A DNA stretch of 64,000 bases from Amoebophrya sp. A120 (lineage: Eukaryota; Protista; Dinoflagellata). The stretch lies in contig CAJINV010000011.1 of the NCBI GenBank assembly GCA_905178155.1, forward strand, positions 2,035,894 to 2,099,893. The letters are read 5' to 3'. Position numbers and translations under genes: made by a program. The notes beneath the pieces were generated by a model. It searched no databases. It saw nothing but the letters and a program-made list of their open reading frames with translations, and was not told the DNA's origin. This document shows, piece by piece, positions 1-64,000 of this stretch; position 1 is the stretch's first letter; each line of letters opens with the position of its first letter.

Positions 1-3000
1 GCGTGCCGGATTCCGCCGGTGTCGGAAGGCCCGGCGGAACGTGTATCAACTGGAAAAGTGTCTGCGTCTGGAAGAATGCAACCTGTGATGCTAACTTTGG
101 ACTCTAAAAAAATCTGTATTGCATGACCAGCAGGGGGAGTCTAGTTCGTGCTACGCAAAGAGGGCATTTGTCATGCGGAGTAGGCAGGACGAACCCCCCT
201 AAAAATCTGTGATGCTAGGTCGTGCATTACAGACATCCTGGGTGGTCATGCAAACTATGCATGACAAACCCGGCAACATTCCAGACCCAGACATTTTTGC
301 AGTTCATAACGTGGAGTCCCGCGCCACGCGGAGAAAATCGTCGCTGAAGCCCCCGTATCAAATGCAAAAATGTCTGGCTCTGGAACGAAGCAACTTGTCA
401 TGCTAAATCCGAATCATGTAAACATCTGTGTTGCATGATTCCCAAAAGCTTTCCACTTTTGACCTAATCGAGAGGAGGCAGTTTCTCATGCAGGATTATA
501 GGCATGATAGAAATCTCAGAGAATCTGTCATGCTATGTCCTACATACCAGACCTCATGGCTCATGCAAAACGTGCATGACAAGTCTAGGATTCTGCCAAA
601 CCCAGACATTTTTGCATTTGATACCCCGCCTATGGTCTCCATCTGCAGCAGCTGCTGCAGATCCCGCGGGTTACTCGACCGGAAGTCGCGGCTGCGTCCG
701 CTACCCGAACTCCCGCCGCCACTGCTGGTCAAGTTCAAAATGTCACCAAGGTATCTGTATTTAAGTGTGTTGATCAAGTGAGTTTGTGTTTGATATATAA
801 TTTTAAATTTTCGATACTTCTTCTTCTGCAAGAACTCATCGACACAAGCTGCAGGAGCATGATCGTAGTTATACTTCTTCAAGATGAAAATTGCAGCTAC
901 AAACATATCATGATCCAACTGAAACATCACTCAAAAGATCAGTATACAACTCCATCAGTATGCATCCGAAAGAGTAGACGTCCGTGCGCGCGTCCCACTG
1001 GACGCCAATCATCACTTCGGGACTGCGGTACTGCCGGGTGGAGATCACCTCGCTCTTTCGGTCCACGTCCTCAAAGATAGCCCCGCCGCAGTCGATAATC
1101 TTGATGTTGGCGTACCGCGGGCGGCGGTACTCTCCGTCCTCGAAGCACCCTTGCACCAATATCAACTGCAAAAGTGCCTCCGTCTGGAAGAGTGCCAGAT
1201 GACTTGTCATGCAGGTTTTCCGTGACCGATGAGGTCTGGTATGTAGGACATAGCATGACAGATTCTACTGTGAGAATTCTATCTATCACGCCTATCCTGC
1301 ATGAGAAAGAACTGCCTCGCCTCGATTAGGTCAAAAGTGGAAAGCTTTTGGTAATCAAAATCATGCAGTACAGATTTTTACATGATTCAGATTTAGCATA
1401 ACAAGTTGCTTTGTTCCAAAGCCAGACATTTTTGCATTTGATAACCAAGACCCCCTCGCGGTTCCGACGGCTCGGGGACACGCGGCGGCCCAGGAAACTG
1501 TACCGGTACTTCCGCTTCCACCGGGTGTACTCATCGCCCCCGACTTGCTGGGCCTCGTACTCTTTCCAGCACCGTTTCGGCGGGTCTGCAGTGCGGGTTG
1601 GTGAATACTCGAACAGAATATTCTCCGGCTTCAGGTCGGTGTGCACGCATCCCAGCTGATATTTAGATCGAGAATTCTTTACAGTTCAGTGCGGCAAATT
1701 TTATTTTACCGATTTTATTATTTTTGTTTATATCCAGAATGAAGGGTCATGCAAAATTGGAAATTACGCTCCGTTGCGGCCTCTACGTTGGAGCAGACGA
1801 ACTAGTGATTAAGTATGTTGTTGGTGCAGAAATTTAATATCTTCGAGGAAAAAAGCAAAACTGTACGTAACAATAACAAAGAAACGTACGTTGTGCATGA
1901 AGGTTAAGGCATCGAACCCATCCTTCCCAATCTTCTGAATATCCCGCAAGTACATCGGGCGGTACTGGTTTCCGGTCAAGTGATCGTACCTGATTTTTCG
2001 TATATATCATTTGGGTGACTCTTTCAGTTCCATATTACTCCCCCGCACGCAATAAACTGTCCATCGGTAAAATAAATGCTCGCCATGATCTAGTACCATC
2101 TTCAGCATCAGATCATGCACTTCTACAGCATTTGATCATTGCGTCCGACTGCCAACTTCATCAGCACGTCTTGGAACACACAACCAATGCGCGTCGAAAA
2201 ACAGAAAACAATATCAGTACAAGCTGACGGAAAGTTTCTCGAAGACCATTACAAAGTGCGACTCCTGGTTGGGACCGGCGGGGTGCATGAACTGCTCCAC
2301 TAGGTGGACGATTTTGTGCTTTCCCTCGCAATATGGATTGCAAATATGTATGGGTCTGGAAGAAGGGAACTTGTGATGCGCATTTCACAACACACAGAAA
2401 TCTCTCATGCATAGGCAGCAAAAGATACCCACTTTTTGTCGCCAAAGTGGGGGATTTGTCATGCGGATTAGGCATTGCAGAACCTTCTCGAAATCTGTGA
2501 GGCTAGGGCTTCCATGCCGCACCCTCTGTGTCATGCGAAAACAGCATGACATCTTCCAGACCCAGACATATTTGCACTTGATACGCAAACGCCGTCCAGG
2601 AACCGACTGGATTCGTCCTGTAACCGCTGCAGTATGCGGAATTCGTCTTCTGCGTCGGTCCGGTACTTCTCGCCCGACCGAATCACCTTGGCCGCGTAGG
2701 ACTTTTCTTCCTTGAGCCCCCGCGCCTCTCGCTCCTCCGGGGTCCCCTCGAAGCTCACCTCGATCACGCGGCCGAACGTGCCGTCGCCCAGATGCGCCCC
2801 GATCCGCCACTTGCTGTCCGTGCCCAAAAAGTTGAGGTTTGCAAACTGGAAATGCTCGATGTCGTCATTGCTGTTGCTGTGACTCGTATCCAAGAAAAAA
2901 TCTGTGTTAGTGTAAGTCTTTTGGGAAAACAGCATCACAAGTTTGTCTGCCATGACAGGACAAACTTCTTGCTATGCGTAGATACAAAGGGAACACACAT

Positions 3001-6000
3001 AGGAAGCGAGCCAGACATGCATGTCGAGCATGACAAGTGTAACTGTTTGGCATGTTCTGCATCACAGATTTACACTTACACAGTTTTCTTCTTGCATAAC
3101 TCGCCGCCCGATCGTGGTCTTCATGCTCCTCGTCGTCGTCGTCGCGCCCGCTGCGCTATCAAATGCAAAAATGTCTGGTTCTGGAAGGAAGCAGCTTGTA
3201 ATGCTACCTTTGGATTCTACACAAAATCTGTATTGCATGAACAGCAAGAGAGTCGCAACTTTTGCTACGTGGAGAGGGCATTTCTCATGCGGTATGAGCA
3301 TCAGAAAGCCATCGCAGAATCTCTGATGCTAGAGCATGCATCACAGACCTTATGGGTCATGCAAAATCTGCATGACAAACTCCAGCATTCTTCCAGACCC
3401 AGACATTTTTGCAATTCATATGCGCCTACTGCTCCGGCTGTACCTGCTCCTGCGGTGGTGCGACCGGGACCGGCGACTATCCTCCTCGCGTTCTTCGCGA
3501 TTGTAGTTGCGGCGTCCGCGTCGTGAGTCGGCGTTGCCCCGGGCTGCAGCACCAGCGCCGCCCCTCCGCTCTGACCTCCTCCGCCGGGAATCATCGGCAT
3601 GCTCTACGCGCCGCGCTCCCAAGGATCTCGCACGGCTCGCCCGACTTCTTGGTACGCTCCGTCGCCGCCGGTCGTGCTCGACAGAGAACCGCGCAGCAGT
3701 TATCCTATGTCAAAACGTCCCCACCCCATAGTCACAAATTTGGAGTCGCAATGTAGTCCTGTTTGAGGTACTTCAGCACCATCACAGATTTAGTATATCA
3801 TGCTGATTGGCGCATTACAAAATCCAAGACACGGCTGGAAAACACTTCTCATGGGGCTCCGCATGACAAACAGTTTGAGCATGCAGATTTGCATGACAAC
3901 TCTGGGGTGCGAACGTTTTTACACAGGATAGCAGCATCACGATCTTCAGCGTCCCGCTCCCGCTCCTGTTCCCGCCACTCCAAGGAGACCGGACGCATCT
4001 CCACGTCCTCGGCTTCGCCGTGCAAGAGTCCTGCAGCTCCGTGCTGGGGTCCTGCTTCTGCATCTTCACGGCCATGTTCTACTTCCTCCCGCCCCAGAAG
4101 CTGCTCGGGCTGCTCCTGCTGCTCGTGAAGAAGATCTTCATCCTCATCCTCGTCGTCATCATCATTTCTCGGATTGATCAAAAACTCGTCCTCCTCCTCG
4201 TCGCTAATGGGGTCGTCGTCGTCGTGCTCCTGGGGGTCATCTTCCGAAATGTTCTCCCCGTCGCCGGCCTGCTCGGGCGAAAATGATAAAGCGTTCTCGC
4301 CCTGCTCCTGCTCTCCGCGAACCGCCACGGGGCTGGCGCTCAAACTCAGCGACGTGTTTCCCCGGGCACGACGATCGTTTGGTGCGATTGCTTCCTCCCC
4401 GTCGAAGATGTTCTCGATGTTCTCGTCCAGCTCCGCGTCCTCGTCCTCCATTGGCGCTGCATCATCATCATTTTTATCCTCCTGCTGTTCGTTTATTGAC
4501 AAAGACCCTCGATGATCTACTCGGGAACCACGACCGCTTGCGCTTGCGGAAAACCGTTCTAGTTGTTGTCCTTGTGCTTCTCGCCGAGGAGTGCTTCTAT
4601 CGTGGTCCTCATTAATGGTGCCTCTATTTCTCCTGTACAAGTTTCTGGTGCTCCCGTCCGCGCTGCGATTGTTGGGGCTGATCTGGAGCGAGTTGATGTT
4701 GATGTTCGCTTGAAAATTATTTTGTGCGTCTTCATCGTTATTTTTATCCTGGTCTAAGTTGTTGTGCTGCAAAAGTCCTTGTGGTCCCCTTCCGTGCGAA
4801 GAACCCCGTCGACTGCTGTTGTTCCCGCGCGGACTTTGGTTATTGGCCGCGTCGTATGCATTGCAAATATGTTTGGGTCTGGAAGAATGCAACTTGTGAT
4901 GCTGCATTTGGAAACTACAAAAATCTGTATTGCATGAACAGCATAAGAGGCCCAGTTGTTGCCACTGCGAGAGGGCATATGTCATGCGGTCTAGGCATCA
5001 GGAAGCCCTCACAAAACCTGTGATGCTAGGGCATGCATCACAGACGTCAGGAGCCATGCAAAATGTGCATGACAGACCTTGCATCCTTCCAGACCCAGAC
5101 ATTTTTGCAATGCATACGTCGCGGGACCTCGCCCGCTCGGCCTCTTCGGCGGCCGCAGCTGGCGCTGGTGGTGCTGCACGGGGACTGAGGAAGAGCTCGC
5201 CACCCGCTGCGTCGCTCGCGCGCCGGCTCTTGTTCGATGGAGTGGTGGTTTGCTTCTGCTGCTGCTGCTCTACAACTTGTCCCACGGCGCCCGGGGCTGT
5301 TTTTTCAAAGTGAAAATATTGCTTACAAAACAAAAATGGAGATGCTTTTAATTTCATAAATGAATTCAAAATCCTCGATGATGTAGTTCCTGTTTTGTTT
5401 CATCAAAAAACATTTTCAAAATACCGGCCCCTCCTGTATCGTTCTCCCGCAGCACCGGCAGTGCCGACGATGCGAGTTCTTCCGCCATTTTTCCGGTTGC
5501 AGTGTCCTTGTCTTCCACACTGCTCTTCGCGCCTCCAACCACCGCGACGACGTTCGGCGAACTCTTTCCCGATTTCAGCATTTGCAGGGCCTCCCCCACT
5601 TGCTTCGCGACCTTCGACCCGTGCAGCTGGTCGTGCACTGCTGCTGCGGCACTACTTGAGGCGGACGCGGCAGCAATATTCTGTGTAGTGCCCACAGCTG
5701 AAGAACTTCTGTGCGTCCCCGACGAGTTCCCTTGCCGAGAAAGGTTGGGCAACTGAAAAGAGCGGTTTCGCTCAGACGGCGAGGAGACCGGCGCGGCTGC
5801 ACCGATGTTGTTTTCATTCGCAGTATTTCCACGTCCTTGTTGCGGACTTTTCTTAATGTTCTCGCCGCGGCCAACTGTCGTTTTTTTGTTCGTGCTGCCG
5901 AGGTTTTGGTTTTCCTCTTCGTCTTGGCTCATGATCTCATCCGCGCCCAGGAGGTCCTCGCTGGCTTCGAAGCTTTCACTGTCAGCACCGTCAGGGTCGT

Positions 6001-7680
6001 GCTGGTCAACACCCGATTCTTGTTCTGGGGAACGATCGACGCGACTGTGTGCGTCAGTACCAGCTGGACCTTCAACCGATTTGATTTTTGGATTGGAATC
6101 TTCTTTGAAAGAACAACCAATGCGACCAATTTTCTATTTCATCTGCCAAAAAGATCTAGGAGAGCAGGTGTGTCCAGCTGTAGAACTCCGCCGCTCTATA
6201 ATTCCATAAATAAACAAAAGTTAAGTTACTTAAATTTTTACCGTCCACCCCCATTTGACCATTGTTCCCCTCTCGACGCCCTTGCACCTGCTGTTCCTGT
6301 TGTCGATCCCCCGCACCATTCTTGCCCTTCCCTTTCCGCTGCGGCTGCGCAGGAGCTCGTTGGTGGTTATTCGGACCACGGCCGTCAGTCGTGTTCCTTC
6401 TTGCATGGTTCCCAAAATAATTGCTGTTCCTCGCTCGGTTAATATCATTGTTCCCGCCCGCCCGATTCCGATTGATGTTCTGGTTATAAGTATTCGTAGT
6501 GAAGAATCCCCGATTATGTTGGTCTTCGCGACGACCATGATGATCCTGATTCCGGTCATGATGATAACTACCCGCACCTCGTCCTGGCGACCTGTCGCGC
6601 CGGCGGGGGTTATGATCATTGCGACGATTGTTGTTAATCGGGTGGTAGTCTCCTCGCCTCCGACTCGTGCGCCCGCCGCGGGGGTTGTTATCATAGCCGG
6701 CGCGAGAATAGTCGTCACGATGCTGGTGCTGCTGATCACGTCCGCCACGGCGGTGATTATCCCCGGCGCCACGACGGCGATCATGATCCTCACGGCGCCT
6801 CACCGGGATGTTGTTATTGTTCCCCGGAGGTCCACGACCTCGCTGATTCTGATTGTACCCGCCCCGAGGGCCGCCCGGGAAATTGCTGAAACGTCTGTTG
6901 TTGTTCGTGTGGTTGTTGGTGCTAAACCGCCGGTGGTTCCCTCCGAAGTTCATCCCGCCGCGGGGTCCTCCTCGGTTCGACCCGGGCCTAGCTCCCGGTC
7001 GATCCAGGTTGTTCGTGCTTGGCCGAGGTAATAAAGCGGGGTTGGTGTTGTCATTGGCGTTGGTGCCGGTGTTGCTGTCGTTGTTGTTGTTTTCCCCGCA
7101 CTGTGGATGTTGACCTCCCCCGTCTACTGGGCGGACGTTGTTATTGGTGTTGCTGTTGCTATTGGTACTATTGTTGTTATCAGCAGTCGGGTCCTTGTTT
7201 ATAATTCCGTTGTCGTTTCTATCGACATTGTTCACCGGTACAACCGGGTTCTCTTTATTCTGCGTCTGCCGGCCGTCGCGGCCCACATTGTTCTGCCGAT
7301 CGTCGCGAGTGGTGTTGTTGTTGTTCCTGTGCCGGTCGTTGTTCTGCCGAGACCGCGGGCGGTCGTTGTTGCCGCGATCCGTGTTTCGATTGTTCTGGTG
7401 GTTCTGGTTGCCTCCCTTATGGTGGTTGCCTAAATTGATTGTGGTTTGTTTTACTAAGTAAAAGAACGCTGAAATAAAATCCAATGTCTTGTGCAGGTGT
7501 AGCAAGGAGAATAGTTCCGCGCGCGCATTTTATGCATCACAAGTTCGCAGTGTTGAAACAGTTTTTTGGTACGAGACGTAAGAAGAACAAATCAATACCT
7601 CCACCACGGTGGTCACGCCGGTTAGAATGCGGCCGGTCGCGTCCTCCGCCGCGATGGTACGCGCGATCTCCGTACCCCAT
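1..7680 (-). CDS. CLK/LAMMER-family (CMGC) protein kinase with long RG/N/RS-rich N-terminus; multi-exon, 3' end outside window
   Basis: Reconstructed exons give LGDGTFGRV, YAAKVIR, HFVMVFEKLSVSLY, HTDLKPENILF, IKIIDCGGA, STRQYRSPEV, DVYSFGCIL. Putative ATG at 7680 (MGYGDRAYHRGG). Linking the low-complexity N-terminal exons to the kinase domain is inferred from frame continuity across introns. Confidence 0.85.
44..308. mobile_element. Introner/MITE-like element, family A (TIR TATCAAATGCAAAAATGTCTGGGTCTGGAA-like)
   Basis: TIRs; TSD ACGTG. Confidence 0.9.
356..623. mobile_element. Introner family A
   Basis: TIRs; TSD CCCCG. Confidence 0.9.
1160..1443. mobile_element. Introner family A (inverted relative to 356-623)
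   Basis: TSD ACCAA; removal gives EGVLV|QGCFED. Confidence 0.9.
2332..2583. mobile_element. Introner family A
   Basis: TSD CGCAA. Confidence 0.9.
2887..3098. mobile_element. Introner, singleton TIR TATCCAAGAAAAAATCTGTGTTAGTGTAA
   Basis: TSD ACTCG. Confidence 0.85.
3157..3420. mobile_element. Introner family A
   Basis: TSD TGCGC. Confidence 0.9.
3701..3930. mobile_element. Introner family B (TIR TATCCTRWGTAAAAACGT..CCCACCCC)
   Basis: TSD GCAGT/GCAGC. Confidence 0.85.
4855..5116. mobile_element. Introner family A
   Basis: TSD CGTCG. Confidence 0.9.
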
Positions 7681-9707: not shown

Positions 9708-12455
9708 CTAAACGAACAGTCCCTCGACGTCGGCGAGGCTGCCCTTTCGACTGCAAAAGTCCGCTACGGTCGACAGCGACTCGACCCGCTGCATAATTGG
9801 ACACGTTTTGTTCTTTTTTCCGAAACAGCTCGTCTCGCTATCCATCCCCTCGTCCAACAACTGTGGGGGCTTCTTGCGAAAGTACCCAGTACCTCCTCTT
9901 CCCGTTGATGTGCTACTGGGTTCGGTCGAGATTATCGAGGTAGACAGGCTGGCGGAGGACGTCGACGAGGACACGGATTTTTCCGAAAAGCAAGCCGGTG
10001 AGAGCGCGACTTCTTCGGATGTTATGTCGAAAATTTCCCCCGTGCTTTCGAGCTGCCGCAGCCGCTGTTGCGTCTCTTCTACCACGTCGTACCGGACGTG
10101 GGAGAGGAGCACGGAACCCGGCGAGGTCGCCATGTCGCGCGTGATTGGCAGCCAACCACCTACGTTGACGGCCGGAGAGAATTTGATGACCGCGGGCAGG
10201 GATGAGATCTAGGAGAAGTCCGTTTTATATATATTTTTTTACTATTGATTGTCCTGTGTCAAAATCATCTCAATGTCGCCGCGAAATGGGCATGACGTCA
10301 AATAAGAACTCATCAAAAGAAAAAGTTTGGAAGCTCAATATGTTCCCCGAGCGAGCCTGGTGGAAACTACTTACATCACAACCTACTGACTCCAACTCCT
10401 CTTTTCAGCTCTATATACCTGTCCATCGTGATCCAAATCTTTGGCCAAGGAGCCTTCCTTCTGTGTGTTCCGCAGGTCAAATTCCACACACCTGCGCTTC
10501 AAAACGTACCGAAAGTTCCGCTCGAGCATCTGTCGAAACAGCTTCCCCTCGTTGACGAGCACGTCTGCGAGCACCTCGTGGCAGCCCGTTCCCGTGGCCT
10601 GCTGCACGAGCCACGGCCCCGCGCCGCCCTGCAGTCGCGCGCCGACCTCGATCAGACAGGGTCCGGTCTCGGTGAGCATCACCTCCCCGTGGCTTATCCT
10701 GTGCAAAAGAATCGCACTCGTGTGTTAGTAATTGCGCCTATGCATTACAAATCTACATGCTATAGGCAAATCAGCATGACAAATTCCATTTGTGAAGATG
10801 CTGAGCTAATTTGTATTGCAATACTACGAGTACGACACTTTTGCAAAGCATATGGCTGGCGCCGAAGTGAAAGCCGAGCGCGTCCAGGCAGGCGTGCATG
10901 TAGGCGATCAGGAGATTGGCGGGGGACTCGCACTATGCATTGCAAAAGTATCGTATTCGTACAAATGCGATACAAATTTCTGCAGCATAAGTAATGCAGA
11001 TTTAGCTGTAATGCATGATTGCAACACGAGTACGATTCTTTTACACAGGATACGCACGCATCGATGACCTCGACGGACTCGTAGGTGATGGAGTTGTGTG
11101 CGGGGTCAAAGTGCTTCTTGTAGCGCAGCAGGCCCGTGACCACGTGGCGGCCCTTGAAGGACACACTGTTGACGACAAACTCCGTGCCCCGCAAAAACTC
11201 CTGGGCGAGCAGCTTCTCGTTGGTTTCGCCGTTGCAGTTTTGTTTGCTCTATCCAGCGCAAATATGTCTGGCTCTGGAAGACTGCAAGGCTTCTCATGCA
11301 GGTTTCGCATGACCCGGAAGGGATAGAGTGCGAGCCTAGCATCACAAGTTTTGAGAATCCTCCTCGGTGCCCATTCTGCACGAGAAATGTTGCTGTCTTG
11401 TAAGTGTAACCGATAAACTGGGCACCTTTGTTGGTCACACAATACAGATTTTTGTGTCGATCCAGCCCAACATGACAAACTCAAATTCTTGCAGACCCAG
11501 AGCACATATTTGCAATGCATATGTTCAGCTCTTGGTAGAACGCGTGGTCAATGTCTGCAGCGCTATGGATGTGTCAGGATTGAAATCTTCGACAAAGTTG
11601 AAATATTAACTTGTCATGCATAAAATGAATGAAAGTCGTAACCCAGTTTCCAAGTGACGCATGATAAATTTGGGTAGAGCCGAAATCCAGTTTGTCATGC
11701 TGTTTGGGTAAGGCAGAAGCCTTTTGTCATGCTACTTCAGCAGCTCAGTTTCTACCCCTTAACAGGCTTACAATCTGCCTCCCTCGCTTACTCAGCAAGA
11801 CAAGCACCTTGTGGCTTGCATTTTATGCATCACAAACTATTTCAACTTTGACGATTTCAATCCTGACACTCCCATACGTGCTGTGACACCAGTACACGCC
11901 GTCCGTGCCCCCGGAACAGGCTGGCTTCACGATGATGGGGAAGGAAATGTCGGCTGCTTCCATCCAGTACCGCACCTCTTCGGCCGTCGCGCAGTAGCTC
12001 TGCCGGATGGCGCGGAGGTTGCGGTCGCGCAGCCGGGCCTGCTGGTCGAACTTGTGTCGCCGCCAGGAGCTCGTTCCTGCGTCATTGGAAAACTTGGGGT
12101 CGCCTAAAACCGCTTGCAGTTGCTCCGCGACGACGACCCCCGGCTCGCTGCCGGCGACGACCGCGTGGATGGATGATGGTGCACAAGCTGACAGCGTGTT
12201 TGAAAGAAAATTTCGGATCTTCCGCGCGGTGTCTTCCACGGTGCTGAACTGCACCACCGCAGCGAAGTCCGCCGGCTCGAGCTGCCGCAACCAGAAGTCG
12301 GCGAGCTGCAAACTGCTCTGCACCGCGATCAGCGTCGCACCGGCCTCTTTCAGGGAGGCAACCAAACTGCGCCCGGTCGAATACGGGTCTACGACCACAA
12401 TAACGCAACCACAATAGCGCGGATCGTGGGAAGGGGCTGCAAGATTTTTTGACAT
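9708..12455 (-). CDS. ATP-grasp ligase (L-amino-acid ligase/NikS-DdaF-like), multi-exon
   Basis: Spliced motifs VVVDPYSTG, VVAGSEPGV, FPIIVKPACSGGTDGVYWC, LAQEFLRGTEFVVNSVS, GASHGEVMLTETGPCLIEVGARLQGG. Confidence 0.85.
10695..10852. mobile_element. Introner family C (TIR TATCCTGTGCAAAAGWATCGYACTCG)
   Basis: TSD TGGCT. Confidence 0.88.
10934..11052. mobile_element. Introner family C (shortest, 119 bp)
   Basis: TSD CGCAC. Confidence 0.88.
11250..11521. mobile_element. Introner family A
   Basis: TSD TGCTC/TGTTC. Confidence 0.85.
11564..11876. mobile_element. Introner family D (TIR TATGGRWGTGTCAGGATYGAAATC)
   Basis: Degenerate TSD AGCGC/CGTGC. Confidence 0.85.
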
Positions 12456-49088: not shown

Positions 49089-49108
49089 CTTCAAAATGGA
49101 TGCAGCGA

Positions 49109-49370
49109 TATCAAGTGCAAAAATGTCTGGGTCTGGAAGGTTAGAACTTGTCATGCTAAATCTGAACGATGCAAAGATCTGCGTTGCGTGAGTACCGAAA
49201 GCTGTCCACTTTTGACCAAGTTGAGAGGGAGTTTCTCATGCAGGAAAGGCATGATAGAGACCTCAAAAAATCTCTCATGCTGGGTCTCGCATTCCAGACC
49301 TCATGGGTCATGGAAAACCTGCATCACAAAACTTGCATTCTTCCAGACCCAGACATTTTTACATTTGATA
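49109..49370. mobile_element. Introner family A (probably in the 5' UTR)
   Basis: TSD AGCGA. Confidence 0.88.
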
Positions 49371-50937: not shown

Positions 50938-52472
50938 TCAGCACGTGCGATCCTTGCTGGCTGCTGCACTGGAAGGTGAGTTCCTGCCGCTTTTGTACTT
51001 CTGGCAATGTCGACAGCTTTCCATCAGCGTCTTCGCCCATTCGATGCCGCTGTTCTCCCCGCCGTCGAGACCGCTTCGCTCCTTTACCTATCCAGATGAA
51101 AATTCTTCCCCCCTCCCAGTATACCTAAACGAAACTCAGAATGGCAGATGCCTAGCCTGTCGGCCGCCCAACAGGATCTCCACAAATCGCCTGCATAGTG
51201 CGGCGGCGGATTTGTGGTGACAAATCATCAGGTTCACAAACATAATCAATCTTTCCGAAACTCATACCTGATTTTGCAACGGGGAGTAGGGGGGATTTAG
51301 ATTTCCCTTTATGATATCGCTTGTCGTGTGTTCAGCACCGTGAGCACGCCGTAAATGACCGGTTTTTGACTGTCCAGGTTGAGCCGCATGACGCCCTGCG
51401 TGGCCGTATCCTAAGCAAAATACGCGTCCCCACGACCCCAGAGTCAAGTTCAGGACCTATAGCAATACAAAGACAAATCCAGCGGCTACTTGAGGAGTCA
51501 GAGTCACGCATAACAAGATCTAAATTGTATAATTGTCGTGCATTTCAGAAAGGACAGCCGTGAATCTTCACAAAGCCATCTCCTCGTCCTGTTTACAGCA
51601 TTACAAATGCCAAAACAGGCTTGGGAATGACTTTCATGGATATCGTGCGCATTTTTACAAGTGTTCCTGTAGATATGCAAATGTGCACGACAGCTCTGGG
51701 GTGGGGACGTTTTTGCTCAGGATAGACCGCCTCCGCGATGTACTCGAAGTGCATCGTTTCGCCCTTGACCAGACACCCGATCACCAGCACGCCGTCAAAC
51801 TATCACAGCAAAAAGTGTTAACGTTAATGGAAAAATTTGTGAAGCAGTAATGCACCACTAAACGCGCCATCAAATTTTGTCATGCATAATAAAGCATGCA
51901 TAATAAGCTCAGTGTCCATTTGTGATGCATGACTGCAATCGGTGAACACCGTTAGCGTTACCACTTTTTCTTGTGATACAAACTGGGGGAGCATCACGCT
52001 CGCGGCCAGTGGCAGCTCGTACGCGCCCGCCACCCGCTCGACCGTGACCTGGGCGCCCGCACTTTGCAGCGTCGTGACCGTATGCATTGCAAATATGTCT
52101 GGGTCTGGAAATTTGTAATGCCGGATTGTAAGTAGTGAATGCTCTGCAATGCACAGCCAAGCACGAGAAATTGTATTTGCGTGGCTTGGTGTTACGCTTT
52201 CCGCATGACGAACTGCGTCTTTGCGTGACAAGCAAAACAAAGGGTCTCTTCTTGGACGCGCATCATCACAAACTCTTTAGTCATGCCAGACAAGCATGAC
52301 AAACCTTGCATCCTTGTTGCAGACCCAGACATATTTGCATTTGATAGACCGCGCCGTCGAGCAACGAACCACAAATTTCCGGATTCCACCGCGCGCAGAC
52401 GATGCCGACCTTGATGCCCGTTCCGTCAAAGTCCTGCTCGGGCAGGCCACGCAGCGGATCCTTCGAGGCCAT
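50938..52472 (-). CDS. ribH: 6,7-dimethyl-8-ribityllumazine synthase (5 exons)
   Basis: KVGIVCARWNPEIC, VAGAYELPLAA, FDGVLVIGCLVKGETMHFEYIAE, PVIYGVLTV, NSGIEWAKT. Confidence 0.93.
51407..51724. mobile_element. Introner family B
   Basis: TSD GGCCG/GACCG. Confidence 0.85.
51801..51978. mobile_element. Introner, singleton TIR TATCACAGCAAAAAGTG
   Basis: TSD CAAAC; removal gives MLPQF|DGVLVIG. Confidence 0.88.
52081..52346. mobile_element. Introner family A
   Basis: TSD GACCG; removal gives DGAV|TTLQ. Confidence 0.9.
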
Positions 52473-53180: not shown

Positions 53181-56100
53181 TCACGTCCCCGACAAGCCGT
53201 AAGCCAGAAGCTCCGCAGCGAGCTGGTCGGCTGCCGTGAAGTCGTATCCCAGAGAAAAAAGCAGGCTGGGCATAAGCATATCTGTGATGCAAAAAGAAAA
53301 TAACATCTGTCATGGGTGGCCCCATATGGCACGCTGCTTAGGACAGGCAACACAGATTTTTTTACCTATTTACCTTTGGTGCATTACAGATATGGCCTGC
53401 CAGTTTTTTTCTGGGAGATAAGTCGCCCGGTTTGCCCAGGAGCTCCACACACCCTATCACCTTCTTGTTCTTTTCCTCCTTACCTTGGTCTTCGTCTTCC
53501 TCAAGAGCAGGTTTGTCTTTGTTCCCGATAAAGAATTCTCCATTAGTCTTCTTTCCGGCAGTAGTTACGGGAGTCGGAGTTGTTGTACTTGATGAAAATA
53601 AATTCTCACTCGTCGAAGTGCCATCTTCCCCCTCGTGTACCATCGTGCCCCCATTCTCGAAAACCGGCACCGCCAGGACGCTCTCGCCCGGAGCCCAGAT
53701 TTTGTCCACGGAGCCGGACAGCCGTACTGTCGTCCCGCTATGCATTGCAAATATGTGGTCTGGGAGATCTGGAAGAGTCTGAGTTTATATATCATGCTAG
53801 TCTGGCATGACTCTGAGGTCTGTATCTCTCTCGTCTGCCATTCATTTCATTTCACTGAGACGGGCCCCCTGTGGTCGTCCTCGCGGTGTCATCCTGGCCC
53901 TCGGCTATTTTGCACAAATGTTGGCTGTGCCCAGCAAGATGACGGCTCTGCATAGGCAAATCTTGGCAATGTCCAGCAAGAACGGAGTTTCTCAAGCGGA
54001 ATACGCAAGACAGAACCACAAAAAAACTTGTCATGCTTGGCGGCGCATTACGGTAGTTGTGATGTGCAGTATTTGTATTACTCATTAACTTGCATCACAA
54101 CTTTATTCCAGACCTAGATCGATATTTGCAGTTTATACCCGCCCGTGCGAAACACTTCTTCCGCCGCCGAGGCCTTGGCGGAAAACCGCGCGTCCCAGTT
54201 GCCCGTATTAGTTGCAAATATGTCTGGGTCTGGAAGGATGCGAACTTGTCATGCTGGGCTCGCAGTTTTCCTGTGAAATCTGTACTTTTGCATGACCAAC
54301 AAAAGTCCTCGCAGCGTCTTTTGTCATACCAAAATGGAGCTCTTTCTCATGCAGACTGCGTATGAAAGTAAAGCGTTCTGCAAAATTGTCATGCGTGGCT
54401 GCATTTAGAAGTGTTTCCATCATCATCCATAGTTTATGTATAGCATCACAAGTTTCCCTTTCCAGACGTCCCGGGATATTTGCATTTGATAGCCGGTGGC
54501 AGCCCTCGCTACCAGCTCGCCCTCCGCCACTACCGCGAGGAAAAATCCCCCCTCCCCATATTGAAACGGCACGCACCTGAAAACTTTCGATACTGATTTG
54601 TTGTGGGCGCAAGTCGTGTCTTTCTTGCAAGAGGGCAAATAAAGAAAGTCCGCCAAATTACGCGAAAGGTTTGTGATGCTGTTAGACTTACCGAGAGGAC
54701 GTCTGTAATGCTGAGCGCCTACCCCAGAACACCCCTGCCCAGGGTCCGCATCTGTCCGCAGTCCTGTACTGCAGGACAAAGCTGATTTGTGTACTCAAAT
54801 CCCGCATCGAAGATATGGGGAGGGGGGATTTTTAATTTTGATAGCCGCGTCGTAGATGTACAGGATCGCCTGGAAAGTCAGCGTGGGTCGGTTGTAAACA
54901 TTTTCCAATCATTTTTATCTTTTGTAGTGATCGAACAATTTCATCCTCAGGCGCGAATCAATTTTTATCGCCAAGCAGTGTTTCTTTTCACACGTGTGCA
55001 CGAGAGCAAAAAAAATCTGGAACGACAAAGCGAAAGCACACCAATAAAACTGCCCGGCATATGAAATAATGTAGAAGACGCGTCAAACATTGTCGATTTT
55101 CAACAATCTGAATCAACTTCCTTAATACCCGCTTCGCGCCGAGCACGGTTGCGAGCATGCGGAGCCACTGGGCCACGAAGATGCAATCAGTACTGTCGGC
55201 ACGATTGCTGCGGCCCTGCTCCACCACGTTCTGCGTAACGAAGAACAAAGCGATTGCCTCGAGCATGATCTTCCCGCAGCGCTGCGCGAACCGCAGCGCC
55301 AGGGGCTCGCCCAACAAGCACTCCAGCACATCGGTGTGCTCCGCCCGCTGCAGCTGCACCGCCACCTATCGCACGAAAAACAAACTGTTTCACTGTAACA
55401 AAGAACTTGTGATGTTGCATAGAGATAGAATGGAACACAGAAGCTGCGTTTGTCTTACTTACTTACACATGCAAGAGCAAGACGATAAATTTCTAGGCGT
55501 GCTGTCTATTCCCCCTAGGAGTAGGAACAATATCCTCGCATGGAAAAACACTATAAAGTTTTCTTTCTCATTTGTAGCGACCTTGTGATGCAGAACTCGC
55601 AAAATCTTTACAGTGAAACACTTATCAAATGTAAAAATGTCTGGGTCTGGAAGAACGCAACTGGTGATGCTGCATTTGGATTCCAGAAGAATCTGTATTG
55701 CATGAGTACCAAGAGGAATGCAATTTTTGCTATGCGGAGAGGGCATTTGTCATGCGGAATAGGCATCAAGAAGCTCTCAAAAAATCTGTGATGCTAGGGC
55801 ATGCATCACAGACATCAGGGCTCATGCAAAACGTGCATGACAAGTGTCAGAATCTTCCAGACCCAGACATATTTGCATTTGATAACACTTTTTTCGCAGG
55901 ATACCACCAGTGCGGTAAACAGCGGCCCGTACTCGAACACGAACGGCGCGTGGAGTAGCGACGAGTATGGAAGCGTCAGGTTTGAAATCGACAAAGTTGA
56001 AATGATTTGCCATGCATAAAATGCAAGGCATGAAGTGCCTGTCTTGCCGGGATGACAAGTGAGGCCGACTGTCAGCCTGTTTAGGGTTTGCAGTAGAGCT

Positions 56101-58543
56101 GTTAAAGTAGCAAGACAAAAGCAATCTTCTGTGCCCAAACAGCGTGACAAATTGGATTCCGGTGCTCGGAAGATTTGCCATGCACTGCTTGGAAATTGGG
56201 CTTCCAACTGGTATCAATTTTAAGCATTACAAGTTATTTCAACTTTGTCGATTTCAATCCTGACACATCCATAACGAGGGTCGTTCTCGTTGTAGTACCG
56301 AGGTGAAACATTACAATTGAGTAACTTACAACCACAGCATGCGCAAAAGATCACGACCTGGAGGGAGTTTCATACATCCGGGGGGAGGTTTATTAATATA
56401 GCCTTCTCCCCGCACAGAACTGCCGCATCTCCCCGCGCGATGCTCCGACGGGATAACGAGATTTACTCCCTCAAGCTGGCGGTGTGCAGCAGTTCTGAGT
56501 ACAATAAAAGTACTATTTTCACATGACAGAGCGAATCGCGCACGCATCACATCTCCCAGGTAGTTCACAGTGTATTTTCCCTGCTGTAAGCAGCACATTT
56601 CATTTCGAGTTTGAGGAAGTAACAGTCAGTACTGCAATCATTCTTGTTCACTTCGATAGCAGAGGAAGAAATTGAATCTGACCCGTCCTGCAAAGATCCC
56701 CGAAAGATGTTCTTCCCCTGCGGATCCTCATTTGCTGCTGCCAAGCCACCGCTCCGCCTTTCCTCTCCGTCGCTGGACTCCAGTAAAGTTTTCATCTTCG
56801 CGCGCGAAGATCGCGCAGATGTTGATGACGCAGACTGATTTACGTCGCTGTTGCTGCCTCTTTGATGTTCTTCGGCGGAGAATATCAACTGCAAAAATGT
56901 CTGGGTCTGGAAGATTGCAACTTGTCATACTGTTTTTGGATTCCAAAAAAATTTGTATTGCATGACCAGCCCGAGGAATACATTTTGTGCTACACGACCA
57001 GGCCACTTCTCATGCGGAAGGTGCATCAGGAAGCCCTCTAAAAGTCTGCGATGCTAGGTCATGCATTACAGGCATCATGGGTCATGAGAAATATGCATGA
57101 CAAGTCTTGCATTCTTCCAGACCCAGACATTTTTGCATTTGATAGAGAACACGGGCGTGCGCGTTTTGCGCACGAACCTGCCGTATCAAATGTAAAAAGG
57201 TCTGGGTCTGGAAGAATGCAACTTGTCATGCTGTTTTTGGACTTTAAAGAAATTTGTATTGCATGACCAGCAAGAGGGGTGTAGTTTGTGGCACACGGAC
57301 AGGGCATTTCTCATGCGGAGAGTGCATCCGGAAGGGTTCTAAAAATCTGTAATGCTAGGGCATACATCACAGACTATCATGGGTCATGAGAAGTATGCAT
57401 GACAAATCTCGCATTCTTCCAGACCCAGACAGATTTGCATTCCATATCCCGCTCCGCCGTCCCGAGCGCGACTCCTGTTGTACTTCTTCCTCCGTCCTCC
57501 CGTCGCTGGACGCGGGACGCGCTCGTCCTGGCGGAGCAAGTAGAAATGGGTGTGCACTCTCTTTTCGGTCTACCGGCGAAGAAGCTCCCACGCGCCCGTC
57601 ATTTTTACCACCGGAGGACTGGTTGTGGTACAGCGGCTTTGAAGATGTTGTTGACCGCGGGGGTGAAGTAGGCGAGCAAGTTTTTGCAACTTTATGATCT
57701 CTGCTGCTGTCCAGCGGCGCGGTGTTTTTAGAGCCGGAGGAAGTAGTCGCGCCTTTGATATTTCTACCACAGTAAGAACCCGGCCGGGTGGTAGAAGAAG
57801 TCGAACTTGAACTGGTAGACGGCAGCAAACGCCAAGCAGGCGGCAGCTCCCCCTGCGGTCCCGGACGCGTGCCCCGCTTGTTGCTGGCGACGAAAGAGGG
57901 CAATAAATGATCGCCAGCGGCGGGGTTCGCAGCCTTCGTCCGGAAAAAACTTCTGCAGGGCCGTGGGAAGATTCCTTCATGTTTTTGCTGAATCGGAGAA
58001 GTTGAACCCATGCAACGACCCTGAAGAAGCCGCGCCCGCGGACATCACAACCTACTACAGCGATCTTCATATCTCGTCGTCACAACTTGAACCTATGCGA
58101 GCAAAAGAGGTACTCAAATATCAAACTCTACCTTCCTCGTCTCTCCCCTCCGCCACTTCACGATGAAGGTAGCCGTCCCGCTCCGGTGAAGCCATACTCT
58201 GCTCGCTTGGGGGATCGAATGCAGTCCGCTCATCCTCCTGTAGTTCCTGCCCACTGCACTCCGAGTTGTGTCCCTCCTCGCGCACGCGGTGCCGCAAGGC
58301 GTGGGTCAGTTCCTTCAGCTTTCCCACCTGCAGCTCCAAGCACTGGATGGTGCGAACGTGCGCGTTAATGGTGTCGTCCTTCTGGCGCAACCGCTTCTCC
58401 CAATGGGAGGGGGAGTAGACAGGCGCAACGCCTGGGACGAGCGGGAGGTCGTCTTTCCACGGGAAGGCATGACCGTCGCCGGGACTGGCCGTGCGGCCTC
58501 TGCTGGTGCCGGCGGCGTCAGACGGGTCGGTGGCGCTTTCCAT
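53181..58543 (-). CDS. Coiled-coil and GAF-domain-like protein, multi-exon
   Basis: N-terminal heptad-like WEKRLRQKDDTINAHVRTIQCLELQVGKLKE; C-terminal GAF signature SVLAVPVF...VIGCVELLGKPGDFTAADQLAAELLA. Confidence 0.6.
53245..53420. mobile_element. Introner family G
   Basis: TSD AGTCG. Confidence 0.9.
53739..54137. mobile_element. Introner family A, enlarged and degenerate
   Basis: TSD CCCGC. Confidence 0.82.
54206..54491. mobile_element. Introner family A
   Basis: TSD GCCCG/GCCGG. Confidence 0.85.
54531..54843. mobile_element. Introner family F
   Basis: TSD GCCAC/GCCGC. Confidence 0.85.
55367..55903. mobile_element. Outer introner (TIR TATCSYRCGAAAAA..TGTTTCACTGTAA) containing a nested element
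   Basis: TSD CCACC. Confidence 0.85.
55623..55884. mobile_element. Introner family A nested within the outer element's TIR
   Basis: TSD ACACT. Confidence 0.9.
55966..56273. mobile_element. Introner family D
   Basis: TSD ACGAG. Confidence 0.9.
56883..57144. mobile_element. Introner family A
   Basis: TSD GAGAA. Confidence 0.9.
57184..57446. mobile_element. Introner family A
   Basis: TSD TGCCG/TCCCG. Confidence 0.88.
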
Positions 58544-59449: not shown

Positions 59450-62400
59450 TCACAAGTGTTCCTTCATGGTCTGAAGGTACCCGTAGGCCAGCTTCAGCGC
59501 GCCCTGGCTGGTGGGGTGAATGTGCGTGACGTCCGGGGCGGAACCCACCAGGCCGAACAGCTCGTGCACCGCAATGGGCACCACCTTCGTTTCCGGCCAC
59601 TCTTTCTGCAAGCTATTACAGTGAAAAGTGCCCCCCATCCCTGAAATTGCAAAAATTTATGATGCGAAGTTTCCAAATGAAAACTTTTTGTCATGCATGA
59701 AAGGAGTATGAATCTTTCTGATGCAGAGTATAGGCGTGTATCGCATCGCTTGCATGACAAGCGCCGCACTTGCTGGGGTCTTTTGCAATACAAATTTTTG
59801 CTATTCACGATCGGAAACCTGTGATGCTGATTGATGCAAGAGGGTGAATGTTTCATTTGGAAAGGTTTGCAATACAAATGCTCGCAAGTTCGGGTGTGGG
59901 GGCATTTTTCATTGTAATACAAGCGTGCGGCGAGCCGCTGGTGCGCCAGGTGGATGCGGCTCAATGTCGTTTCTATTGAGAGGAAAAATTCCCCCTCCCC
60001 AGATTGAAAACGCATTCGTCCGAAAATTTGCGATGCAGATTTGAGGTCACAAATCCTGTCTGTCTTGCAAGAAGGCAAAGCCTGAGAGTCCGCCGCATTA
60101 TGCCGGCGGTTTGTGATGCTGTTGGGCTTACAGAGCCGACATCTGTCATGCTGGTCCCCTACGTCAAAACCTCTCGACCCAGGCTGGACATATGCCTGCA
60201 GTCCTCTCCAGCAAGACAGGCCTGACTTGTGTACGCAAATCCAGCATCAGAAACTTCGTTTCGATATGGGGAGGGGGGATTTTTCATTTTGATAGTTTCC
60301 AGAAACGCGTTCCCGCTCCCCATACCCAACTTCTGCGAGAGCCCGAACAGAAACCTGGTTTGTTGGAAGTGGAAGAAAATACAGATTCACTTTGCGGCAA
60401 GACTAAGATCATAAACAGCAGCACACTTTCAATATACTGGTTCTTTAATTTGAATACGATAAAAGACAAAACGATACGCAGAAAGCTTGAGGCTGGACTC
60501 CGGGTGGAAGTAGCTGGGCAGCAGGATGAGGCGGGGCGCGTTCTGCTTGTCGGGGCATAGCAGGTGGAGGTACTCCCACTTTTCCTGCTCGAACAATCGG
60601 TCGATCAGCTCCAGGTACAGCTCCTCGGAGGATTTCTTTGCCTCCGCGCCCTCGGCATTAAAGACCTCCGCGAACAGGCGTCGCCCCTGCAGCAGGTCGT
60701 TGCCGCCGAGCGACACGACCAGCACGTCGTTCTTCCGGATGTTGTATGACATGCAATTATGTCTGGGTCTGGAAGAACGAAAACTTGTCATGCAAAATTT
60801 CCGTGCCCAATGAGGTCTGGAATGCAGGGCCTAGCATGACAGAATTTGTGAGGTCTCTATGATGCCTATCCTGCATGAGAAACTCCCTCTCATGTTGGTG
60901 AAAAAAGTGCAACTTTTGGTGATCACGCAAGACAAATTTTTGCATGCTCCAAACTTAGGCATGACAAGTTGGAACTTTTCCAGACCCAGACATATTTGCG
61001 ATGCATATGTTGCTGCGAAGAAACTCGTCGTGGGACTTCAGCCGCTCCTGCACGTAATCCGTGGCGAAACCCTGCTTCTGCACCAGAAGTCGCTCCTATG
61101 AGAGTAAACAACTCACCCTAGTCCCGCTTATTTGTATCATGGCATGAACAGCAACACAACCACCAGCACACGTCGTGGAGCCTGTACATGACAAATTTTT
61201 GATGCGCCGAGCTCTGTTGTACTGTTTAGCAGGCTCCCGGAATCATTTCTCATGCAAACATTGCCACAGAGAAGCAACTGGAGTTGTAATTTTCCATGAG
61301 AACAAATGAGGGGGAGAAAGGGTTGCGCACTCTCATAGCTCCCCCAGCTCGCTGCCCGCGATCGCGCCGTTGACAATATGAAAGCCTCAGGTTGGAAATT
61401 CTCAAAGTGAAAATAATTTGTAATGCAAAAAAACGACTCCAGTTGAAGCACCATTCCTAGTCGGCGCATGACAAATCTCCCGGGCACTCAAAACGTGTCT
61501 GTCATGCTAGTTAGGCAATGGGGTGCCCTTGTGTCGTGCTAATCAGCAGCCCAATTCTGAACCCGTAGAAGCACAATGGTCGGCCTCCATTGCGAGCTCA
61601 GCAATACAGGGCTTTTTGCGTCGCATTTCATGCATCACATCGGAGGTCTACGGGCAGTTCGTCCCTTGTGGCATCAGGCTCTACTAAAACCAATAAATTT
61701 ATTCATTCACTCATTCACTCACTACCCTCGTGATTCGATGCACTTCTGATGGCACATGTGGAAACACGATTGGCACCAACGCACTTCTGGTGGTGCGTGC
61801 ATTTACTTAGTCATAAAGTAGAAAGTATAACACGATGAGCATAGACAAACTTAAGCGCGAACTTTACGAAGTGCAACGTACGAGATGTGACGAGAGACGT
61901 CCTAGGACAGTGAAGCAAGGACGGCTACTGCCACACGGGGTCCCGCAGAGACCGAGCACAGGGCACCTGACCGTGGTACATCAAAGGCCTGGAGGTCTAA
62001 GCGGGTGCTCGCACAGATCGAGTCCAGGTCAACGAGTAGTACACCGTGGGTGCATGCTCACTACTACTCGAGGCCTCGATCTGTCGACAGCCCAAGCAAC
62101 ACAGGGGCGCGGCAAAAAGCGCACGACTGTCTACATACCGTGATGGTATGTACACTGTCGTCGCCAGCAACTGGCGATAAAAAAGCCTACAGACGATGGT
62201 ACGAAACTACGAGCACGAGCACAGACGTACGAACCGATTTTTGTTTTTCGTTTACGAAGTCATACCGATTTTTTACATGACGATGCAATACCGAAAAGGA
62301 TTTTGCACGAAGTGCCGTCGTGTAGCGATAAGAAACATTTTAGCAGCTGTTGCTTGGACGTATGAATCATCAAATGCTGCTTGTGGACGAACGAGCTACA

Positions 62401-63460
62401 AAACAACTACATGCATCACAAATTAATTCCACTTTGAGGATTTCCATTCTGAGGCTTTCATAGACCACCGCGAATCCGGAGTACCGGTGGCACCTGTCCG
62501 GGAAAATAATCCCCCCACCCCATACTGAAAGCGGAAACTTGTGATGCTGATCTGCGCCCACAAATCAGCTTTGTCTTGCAACATATGGGGCAAGAACAGG
62601 GAGCCGTTTCAAAACGCATTCCACGGCGCTAATCTGTGCAGCTGAGCTCTTGCCTACTGCAAAGCTGTCTGCCACGCCGAGCTGCTAGCCTTTTGCACAA
62701 CTAGTAATCTTCAGGCTTTGATGAATATATATGCCTTCCAAGCGCTTGCTGCAATACAGCGCAAATTTGTGTACAGAAATCCAGCAACAGAAATCTCCTT
62801 TGTTGCATCTATAGGGTGGGGGCTTTTTTCAACACTTTTATAACTTTCATCCGCGGGGGAAGTTTTTGACGCCACCGCCGTGCTGCTCTTCTCCCCCGGT
62901 CCCATCACACGGAAGTCTTTCACATCGTACAGCAGCTGCATCATCCAGTAGGTGACGTCCCTTATGCATTGCAAATATGTCTGGGTCTGAAAAAGTTCAA
63001 AATTTGCGATGCTACCTCTCGAGCGGACAAAAATTTCTCTTGCATGAGTGCCAACGGTAGTTGCTAGCTCTTCTTGCGCGTGGCACGCAAAAAGCGAGCT
63101 TCTTATGTGGGAAAGCGCATGACCAAGCCTACTTCGCCAAACCTGTAATGCTTCGCAGACCATGTGTCCGCCCCAGAAGATGCATGGCAAACATTAACAC
63201 TTGCACTCTTTCACACCCAAAAAACATTTGCGATTGATATCGCGCAGCACCTTTTGAATCTGCAGCGAGGGCAGAGCCTGCTCGTAGCCGTTCACCGGTT
63301 CAGCCCACGGCGACAGCGGGTAGTCGGGACCCATCATCACAAAGGCCTTGTTGTCCAGCGCCGAGTCGCCGCTGAGAAAGACAATGTCCCGCCCGTCCGC
63401 GCGAAAGGAGTCCGTCAGTGCCTGCAGATGCGGCACGTGCTGCCCCAGCTCGCTGAAGTG
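59450..63460 (-). CDS. SGNH/GDSL hydrolase; start not resolved
   Basis: Blocks VFLSGDSALDN (I), VNGAIAGS (II), VVSLGGNDL (III), DVTHIHPTSQG (V) after element removal. Confidence 0.8.
59614..59919. mobile_element. Introner, TIR TATTACARTGAAAARTGCCCCC (F-related)
   Basis: TSD CAAGC. Confidence 0.88.
59974..60294. mobile_element. Introner family F
   Basis: TSD GTTTC. Confidence 0.9.
60745..61007. mobile_element. Introner family A
   Basis: TSD TGTTG. Confidence 0.9.
61097..61337. mobile_element. Introner family E
   Basis: TSD GCTCC. Confidence 0.88.
61377..62462. mobile_element. Introner (D-related TIR TATGAAAGCCTCAG..TGGAAAT.CTCAAAGTG) with a 770-bp secondary insertion
   Basis: TSD GACAA/GACCA; 11-bp internal direct repeat. 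Confidence 0.88.
62495..62842. mobile_element. Degenerate family F-like introner; ends uncertain
   Basis: CCCCCCACCCCATA / TATAGGGTGGGG subterminal inverted repeat; no clean TSD. Confidence 0.6.
62963..63239. mobile_element. Introner family A (degenerate)
   Basis: TSD TCCCT/TCGCG. Confidence 0.8.
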
Positions 63461-63899: not shown

Positions 63900-64000
63900 T
63901 ATCGCAAGGAAAAATCCCCCCTCCCCATATTGAAGAGGTAGGTTTTCGAAAATTTGTGTTGCTGATTTGAGGTCACAAATCCTGTCTGTCTTGCAAGAAG
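63900..64000. mobile_element. Introner family F, cut by the window end
   Basis: TATCGCAAGGAAAAATCCCCCCTCCCCATATTGAA. Confidence 0.8.

Follow-up and report, generated by a model that had tools for sequence, protein, structure and literature searches.

The dinoflagellate Amoebophrya sp. A120 carries about 30,000 introners, which fall into nearly 2,000 families; according to the available text of the genome report (PMC7789003), neither a transposase nor a splicing mechanism is known for them. In the accessible portions of the two published accounts (Farhat et al. 2021, PMC7789003; Gozashti et al. 2025, PMC12130899), these introners have inverted repeats made up of TAT, seven variable bases and AAA, short direct repeats, and non-canonical splice ends with T as the second base, and their families are treated as unrelated or of unknown superfamily. 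We analyzed a window of 64,000 nucleotides (nt) from this organism (contig CAJINV010000011.1, positions 2,035,894 to 2,099,893 of the forward strand), in which 72 elements agree in their features with the published introners, and both sets include families of about 106, 149, 209, 252-260, 278 and 305-322 bp. Unlike the published accounts, which cover the termini and in their available parts describe no internal motif, spacing rule or shared site, we focus on a short internal word, TGTNATGC. The elements are small non-coding transposons with terminal inverted repeats (TIRs) and behave as introns; the word is a putative phased site in double-stranded DNA for one transposase serving all families, a reading that we consider probable. 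The elements themselves are already known; the motif and its spacing rule are apparently unpublished, as neither was found for Amoebophrya in the literature searched, with the reservation that images in PMC7789003 (4c, S19 and S25) may show the word. The available parts of two further papers (PMC12005148 and PMC11282704) add no internal motif.

Several described systems offer partial parallels. The subterminal repeats in MITEs (miniature inverted-repeat transposable elements) and other TIR transposons (Emigrant/Lemi1; hAT, CACTA and Tc1/mariner) are bound by transposases, and cooperative binding to such words has been proposed or shown, as far as the available text of PMC1636448 goes. Like the word described here, they are short, occur in both orientations and lie in non-autonomous elements; in our elements, too, a short word is repeated near both ends and conserved above the spacers. 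However, the repeats in those systems are family specific and often partial copies of the TIR (PMC1636448), whereas the putative site here spans 13 families, fills the whole element and is TIR-like in about four of them. In the IS607 family (IS1535), 8- to 9-bp direct repeats in helical phase begin 20-60 bp from the end, but these bacterial elements depend on a serine recombinase, have neither TIRs nor target duplications, and show a unit of one turn instead of the three found here (PMC6188088, in its available parts). Ginger2/TDD elements share with ours the TIRs and the 5-bp duplication of TDD-4/5, within the 4- to 5-bp range of that group, but have TGTNR termini in place of TAT (PMC2836005); IS3EU/GingerRoot elements share TIRs and TA..TA termini but have a 6-bp rather than a 5-bp duplication (PMC10045372). 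Strictly taken, the present elements belong to neither group; the accessible text of both reports mentions no phased internal sites, and, in contrast to both groups, no transposase gene was found in the loci that we searched. Finally, the nonconventional introns of Euglena are likewise non-GT-AG and have paired ends and slidable borders, and their genetically demonstrated code, for which complementarity is essential, consists of paired CAG/CTG at fixed distances of 3 and 5 nt from the borders (PMC12501133, in its available parts). The word in our elements lies at least 33 bp inside, with variable orientation and distance and no covariation, so that the terminal TAT would be the counterpart of that code. 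What sets the present case apart from these precedents is one word and one spacing rule extending over many families whose inner TIRs differ, in elements that double as introns.

The elements and their shared internal word

The window is eukaryotic in composition (51% GC), with genes on the minus strand, and contains 72 elements bounded by TAT…ATA and one more truncated at the window end. A 5-bp target duplication is exact in 51 of the 72 and matches at four or more of five positions in 65; it has no sequence preference, and no other length fits (exact at 6 bp in 0 of 71 window elements). As a related sample we used 139 loci (L001-L139; 779 kb, partly overlapping) picked by the terminal pattern of family A, which carry the same families as the window at about 75-87% identity and have no long match to its genes. 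Because this pattern over-samples family A, statistics were computed per family. A motif-blind caller that required TAT ends yielded 402 distinct elements from these loci. Sorting of 467 elements of at most 480 bp (109-480 bp) produced 13 families with three or more members (447 elements, 3-194 copies per family) and 20 singles; the family letters are our own and independent of the A-H used in an earlier sequence-only reading of the window. That reading took the TIRs to differ between families, which is correct from about position 14 inward; at the outer ends, nearly all families share TAT-N7-AAA along with the 5-bp duplication, with families C, D and H departing at positions 11-13. In the terminal logo of the 402 elements, where the TAT was demanded by the caller, A stands at 0.89-0.95 in positions 11-13. 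The elements present MITE traits, being short, with TIRs, a target duplication, no coding capacity and multi-copy families.

Nearly every element lies within a coding frame, and flanks of less than 45% GC are seen in 18 of 478 elements of the loci as against 25% of background windows; this scarcity suggests that insertion or retention strongly favors coding DNA. Only four candidates for non-coding copies were available for comparison with intronic ones. Some family members contain 350-800 bp of unrelated, motif-free DNA (window 61377-62462; L014 505-1608; L018 632-1465; L034 3862-4492; L051 11016-11987); the insert in L014 carries short internal repeats and recurs in L063 at 72-87% identity. 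At 55367-55903, a family A element (55623-55884) is nested within one of family I, and both are flanked by separate, exact 5-bp duplications.

Strict TGTNATGC occurs 202 times in the window (102 plus, 100 minus), with N being T in only three copies, whereas 200 dinucleotide shuffles averaged 6 and never exceeded 15; its fuller form is aaRYY-TGTVATGC-W, and a variant, TGTATTGC, adds 25 copies. Elements hold 198 of the 202 copies, with four outside, a 110-fold difference in density (10.0 versus 0.09 per kb). The sequence-only reading had proposed a word common to all TIR families and sparse elsewhere, to be refuted by a frequency no higher than composition-matched background or by cores no better conserved than spacers; neither is observed, and the proposal is borne out: the motif is present in all 13 families of three or more members and in 392 of the 402 motif-blind elements from related contigs. 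Its further statement that each interior carries several copies applies to most of the elements: 68 of 72 contain a strict copy, 61 of these two or more and seven a single one, and four have none. Masking of the known families in the loci leaves 99 copies over 533 kb, a density of 0.19 per kb versus 0.05-0.14 for control words. At 7515-7545, within a canonical GT-AG intron of the window, 18 bases around the motif at 7534 are those of the inner end of a family D element (11817-11834), and this region may be an element remnant.

Spacing and conservation of the word

The word had been described as often forming spaced palindromes. Of the four cited instances, three (5019, 55787 and 40765) match exactly, and the last lies at 40799 and has an imperfect left arm (GGTCATGC). 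Such inverted pairs with a 7- to 8-bp spacer involve only 14 of the 202 strict sites, versus 47 in same-strand pairs 31-33 bp apart. In a relaxed test that permitted one mismatch and made the flanking RYY obligatory, the 31- to 33-bp pair was recovered in 12 of 13 families, in 43-100% of their members. With one random member per family, it was present in 8.65 of 13 families versus 1.27 with random placement; the 31- to 33-bp window was selected after data inspection, and the null for the best of any 3-bp window had a mean of 3.9 and a maximum of 7 in 400 (versus 8.65 observed). Facing pairs lie 15-16, 37, 45-49, 58, 68, 89, 99-102 and 109 bp apart, and back-to-back pairs lie 17, 34-35, 48-50, 59, 66-69 and 77 bp apart. 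For spacing periodicity, which the sequence-only reading proposed to measure, the best single model over all pair classes has a period of 10.4-10.5 bp, inverted pairs being offset by half a turn (score, 0.423), and this period stays above the null when pairs at 30-34 bp are left out (P = 0.02, free scan). The first inward sites of 14 end types, at 33, 33, 33, 34, 34, 34, 41, 43, 43, 44, 44, 53, 56 and 61 bp from the end, are likewise in phase (R = 0.75, P = 0.0008, with two values above 65 excluded). In families E, K and L, the sites point outward. Masked spacers show no similarity between families; that they are unrelated while the spacing is kept indicates that spacing outlasts sequence.

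Within families, the motif stays intact while the spacers diverge, as had been noted: core conservation is 0.937 versus 0.818 for spacers, with cores higher in all 19 of 19 subfamilies, and the free N position (0.80) behaves like a spacer. On trees of 12 subfamilies, the ratio of core to spacer changes is 0.22 (0.16-0.28) on internal branches and 0.47 (0.42-0.52) on terminal branches. The terminal ratio is ambiguous, since terminal branches take in unsampled copying lineages; mismatches between the two copies of the target duplication arise only after insertion and therefore time it more cleanly. In the 621 copies used out of 688 of full length (0-2 duplication mismatches, intact ends), cores gain 0.026 and spacers 0.029 differences per duplication mismatch (ratio, 0.90; 0.56-1.36), and private changes in conserved columns number 177/12318 (0.0144 per site) in cores and 455/27245 (0.0167) in spacers. 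On the basis of these measures, most of the constraint falls on lineages that are still copying: cores are conserved along those lineages and decay at close to the spacer rate once inserted.

Candidate binding proteins and splice signals

A common trans-acting factor, postulated in the sequence-only reading, is supported by the presence of the word in all 13 families, the unrelated spacers, the conserved cores and the fixed spacings, and remains putative. In the mechanism that we propose, protein subunits would load onto tandem sites that follow each other at three turns along a single face of the duplex DNA, and the site array would position them relative to the shared TAT-N7-AAA ends, whereupon cut-and-paste with a 5-bp stagger could follow. 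Because both the outer TAT-N7-AAA and the inner word are common to all families, a single enzyme would mobilize all of them. It would probably be of the retroviral-integrase type (Ginger2/IS3EU-like), as suggested by the 5-bp duplication, the TA termini and published family 38 (PMC12130899, in its available parts). Splicing may read the termini rather than the inner word, the N-TAT end resembling the native GTAY donor and the long TIRs pairing in RNA.

Several observations weigh against a transposase site of this kind. With the strict motif only, the 31- to 33-bp test is weaker (3.7 versus 0.5, P = 0.01); a 16.4-bp lattice scores almost as well as one of 10.4 bp (0.415 versus 0.423); and element length has no helical period (R = 0.08). 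The motif score at TIR position 3 is positive in four of 13 families, too few for us to retain the TIR as a degenerate motif copy. The enzyme itself is missing from the material searched: no integrase signature was found in six frames of about 780 kb of loci or in the short frames of the long elements there, a Pfam scan of 80 of the 158 long frames (the low-GC end of the list) returned no transposase, and none is reported for A120 in the accessible text of Farhat et al. (PMC7789003). Nor was an autonomous partner with the same ends seen in about 0.84 Mb (less than 1% of a genome), and viral contigs gave 0 matches; published family 38 is a candidate for such a partner. Nine long elements considered as autonomous partners proved to be family members with inserts, and two family E interiors that paired by chance accounted for a 6.2-kb "element" in L046.

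Signs of constraint after insertion point in the same direction. The two-fold depletion of core changes persists on terminal branches, and correction for spacer saturation (our own arithmetic) brings the clock ratio to about 0.7, so that some selection after insertion is possible. The 99 residual copies outside known families include 12 clusters, with six of nine same-strand pairs 29-35 bp apart, and the clustered copies look like old decayed introns that have retained the pair. In addition, retention is better for sites whose transcript strand reads TGTNATGC (ratio, 0.81; P about 0.002), more so when inward (0.70) than outward (0.92), with spacers at 0.99. This asymmetry is not reproduced in private changes (83/6372 versus 94/5946, p = 0.20) or in the per-site count (29 versus 24). 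A mutational strand bias is a possible source of it; this weak asymmetry leaves room for a minor host role. Two decayed introns with almost no TIR pairing, at L017 3315-3493 and L018 ~5850-6060, each carry two copies of TTCTGCATGACAA 32 bp apart; removal of the L017 stretch gives a 199-codon frame.

Less probable than a transposase site, and possible at best, is binding of the phased sites by a host DNA-binding or chromatin protein co-opted as an accessory for bending, end pairing or targeting to coding DNA. Such a protein is consistent with function in both orientations, as observed, with the failure to find a transposase, and with the terminal-branch depletion and the pairs retained in decayed copies; apicomplexan AP2 domains bind TGCAT/TGCATGCA words, a loose likeness only (PMC4117751, in its available parts). 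In a strong form, the protein would remain bound and mark the intron for the spliceosome during transcription, and U1 small nuclear RNA is undetected in A120 according to the available text of PMC7789003. The near-background density of the motif outside elements would be odd for a general factor, however, and both the post-insertion decay of cores and the absence of a strict site from 15 of 391 in-frame copies argue against it. A combination of the two, in which one DNA-binding protein moves the introners and, bound on chromatin, marks them for co-transcriptional removal, would amount to intron definition at the DNA level replacing U1; we regard this as unlikely.

The elements are spliced in a manner that bears on any role of the word in RNA. 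Exact skipping of the element plus 5 nt is seen for 14 elements of six families in contigs of runs guessed to be RNA, eight of them in the first gene and six at 10.7-14.4 kb, where contigs of run X1 read through three of the skipped elements; the raw RNA run X9 of 2026 gave just two aligned reads. Removal of element plus 5 nt yields long frames, one of 1259 codons over 13 elements and one of 1609 over eight. Orientation relative to the inferred gene strand is mixed among 391 copies (187 versus 204), and the two subfamilies that lean (9:26 and 17:33) show no pattern tied to motif strand. Family B has six sites, all on one strand, and orientations of 17:18, one being seen spliced and the opposite one inferred from frames.

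That the word acts in RNA, as a branch point, a splicing enhancer or an intron-definition site replacing or aiding the missing splice-site consensus, appears improbable. In its favor are a UNAC-like core in GCATNACA, a relaxed copy of which lies within 60 nt of the 3' end in 155 of 260 transcript-oriented copies, and the better retention of transcript-strand sites noted above. Against it, this retention is absent from the private changes and the per-site count, 105 of the 260 copies lack the 3' copy, 51 are entirely devoid of strict GCATNACA on the transcript strand, family E is spliced with its sites pointing outward (as do those of K and L), family B occurs in both orientations, and five of six canonical introns seen in RNA lack the word. 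Moreover, phasing at 10.5 bp is characteristic of duplex DNA. The two counts among the 260 copies led us to reject the motif as spliceosomal branch point. The mixed orientations, including those of family B, the site-free copies, the lack of covariation described below and the near-spacer decay leave a required RNA splice code unsupported, and with it the proposal of the sequence-only reading that the word replaces the splice-site consensus. As a separate observation, families J and E (window 2902-2915 and 10722-10736) have a branch-like ACTAAC or TACTAAC on the minus strand, ~20-40 nt from the element end lying 3' on the transcript; across the 260 copies, ACTAAC occurs in seven sense and three antisense.

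The strand-specific signal is instead the first T of the 5' TAT. Among 391 copies, this base never differs at the 5' end (0 changes) but does so 11 times at the 3' end (p = 0.0009). The third T, by comparison, is altered more often at the 5' end (16 versus 4), mainly to C, and the resulting TAC agrees with the native GTAT/GTAC donors. Five of six canonical donors in the window are GTAY; in the element at 11564-11876, with its imperfect duplication, the 5' cut falls 1-2 nt outside the TAT; and A120 donors in the published table are mostly NT (PMC7789003, in its available parts). Taken together, these features suggest that N-TAT likely stands in for the G-TAY donor, making the 5' terminal TAT a candidate donor signal with a free first base.

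That the word is merely a functionless relic of an internal 32-bp repeat in a common ancestor of all families is very improbable. The shared ends and spacings are compatible with common descent, which is likely true and does not explain the conservation of cores, four- to five-fold greater than that of spacers on internal branches, with N behaving like a spacer; this refutes a functionless relic as the sole explanation, and the spacing kept between unrelated inter-family spacers speaks against it as well. Functional hairpins of inverted motif pairs in RNA or single-stranded DNA are barely credible, for although a motif-to-motif helix occurs in the minimum-energy fold of 38 of 66 folded transcript-strand elements, three subfamilies have none, the direct pair is the commonest arrangement, and in close inverted pairs the two N positions complement each other in 112 of 220 cases versus 114 after permutation, an absence of covariation that largely refutes them.

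Features of the window and significance

Features of the analyzed window. Positions are those of the window; "skipped" denotes an element plus 5 nt missing from transcript-type contigs (runs guessed to be RNA).
Feature	Coordinates	Strand	Remarks
Family A element	44..308		sites 84+, 115+ (variant), 169+, 208+, 224-, 259-; skipped
Family A element	356..623		orientation opposite to 1160-1443; skipped
Family A element	1160..1443		skipped
Family A element	2332..2583		skipped
Family J element	2887..3098		three minus sites; 31-bp pair 3028/3059; skipped
Family A element	3157..3420		skipped
Family B element	3701..3930		one-strand sites only; skipped
Family A type example	4855..5116		4895+/4926+ (31 bp), 4980+, 5019+/5035- (16-bp palindrome), 5035-/5067- (32 bp); skipped
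Canonical GT-AG intron	7430..7598	-	motif copy at 7534 (one of 4 outside elements)
Family E element	10695..10852		outward-pointing sites; skipped in X4 record 13
Family E element	10934..11052		119 bp with a single strict site; skipped in X4 record 13
Family A element	11250..11521		one strict site; skipped; 38-nt exon behind inferred from record coordinates
Family D element	11564..11876		imperfect duplication; 5' cut 1-2 nt beyond terminal TAT
Family C element	13485..13722		skipped
Family C element	14155..14375		orientation opposite to 13485; skipped
Host reading frame, UvrD-type helicase domains	16387..23655	-	1259 codons after removing 13 elements + 5 nt each
Family A element	16601..16870		
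Family K element	16936..17141		palindrome present; no 31-33 pair
Family G element	17201..17514		
Family B element	17569..17839		
Family H element	17949..18215		
Family E element	18279..18442		
Family H element	19028..19271		strict sites 0, relaxed 3; within 1259-codon frame
Family B element	19377..19656		
Family C element	20002..20230		
Family L element, older	20741..20908		
Family A element	20976..21263		
Family B element	21584..22042		459 bp, internal insert
Family A element	22163..22429		
Family D element	24749..25038		one terminal TAT altered
Family A element	25127..25378		six strict sites
Family A element, decayed	28867..29062		
Family D element	31656..31964		
Family A element	33313..33562		palindrome at 33476
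Family A element, older	34638..34908		
Family F element	35170..35340		
Family A element	35513..35832		
Family C element	35989..36208		
Family E element	36300..36444		31-bp pair 36341/36372
Family A element	38405..38659		
Family F element	38808..38978		first sites 33 bp in from both ends
Family A element	39996..40277		
Family A element	40599..40861		palindrome at 40765; imperfect one at 40799
Family A element	40993..41244		
Family G element	41300..41619		
Family A element	44098..44355		
Family B element	44402..44680		five strict plus sites (44434, 44465, 44513, 44546, 44595), none minus; orientation opposite to 3701
Family A element	45093..45341		
Family A element	45441..45692		
Family G element	46460..46789		
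Family C element	47148..47363		
Family I element	48384..48654		strict sites 0; within 1609-codon frame
Family A element	49109..49370		
Family G element, decayed	51089..51316		strict 0, relaxed 0
Family B element	51407..51724		
Family M element	51801..51978		
Family A element	52081..52346		
Family F element	53245..53420		
Family A element	53739..54137		399 bp, insert
Family A element	54206..54491		
Family G element	54531..54843		
Family I element	55367..55903		host of nested family A element
Family A element, nested	55623..55884		palindrome at 55787
Family D element	55966..56273		
Family N element	56296..56658		duplication unmatched
Family A element	56883..57144		
Family A element	57184..57446		
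Family O element	59614..59919		
Family G element	59974..60294		
Family A element	60745..61007		
Family C element	61097..61337		strict sites 0
Family D element	61377..62462		1086 bp; ~770 bp unrelated insert, motif-free
Family G element, decayed	62495..62842		ends uncertain
Family A element, older	62963..63239		
Family G-like element	63900..64000		truncated by window end

In the neighboring DNA, the minus strand at 20231-20740 and 22372-23655 encodes a UvrD/SF1 helicase region that is most similar, at 50-64% identity, to unnamed proteins, largely of metagenomic origin; helicases of the UvrD/SF1 type occur in giant viruses. Two intergenic stretches also stand out: a motif-free array at 15480-16170, with ~30-bp GC-rich repeats followed by short GCGCAAAG-type repeats, and, at 30280-31180, alternating A/T runs and GC blocks unlike their surroundings, possibly another repeat or structural element.

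One conserved word and one spacing rule across the families suggest that a single protein lies behind the whole invasion. The most likely function of the word has precedents, and the word provides a defined probe for catching the unknown mobilizer of a very large intron invasion. Two signals can now be told apart, namely, an inner lattice kept mainly while the elements are copying and a 5' terminal T kept after insertion. If it is true that the host keeps using the lattice, this would be a new way of defining introns.

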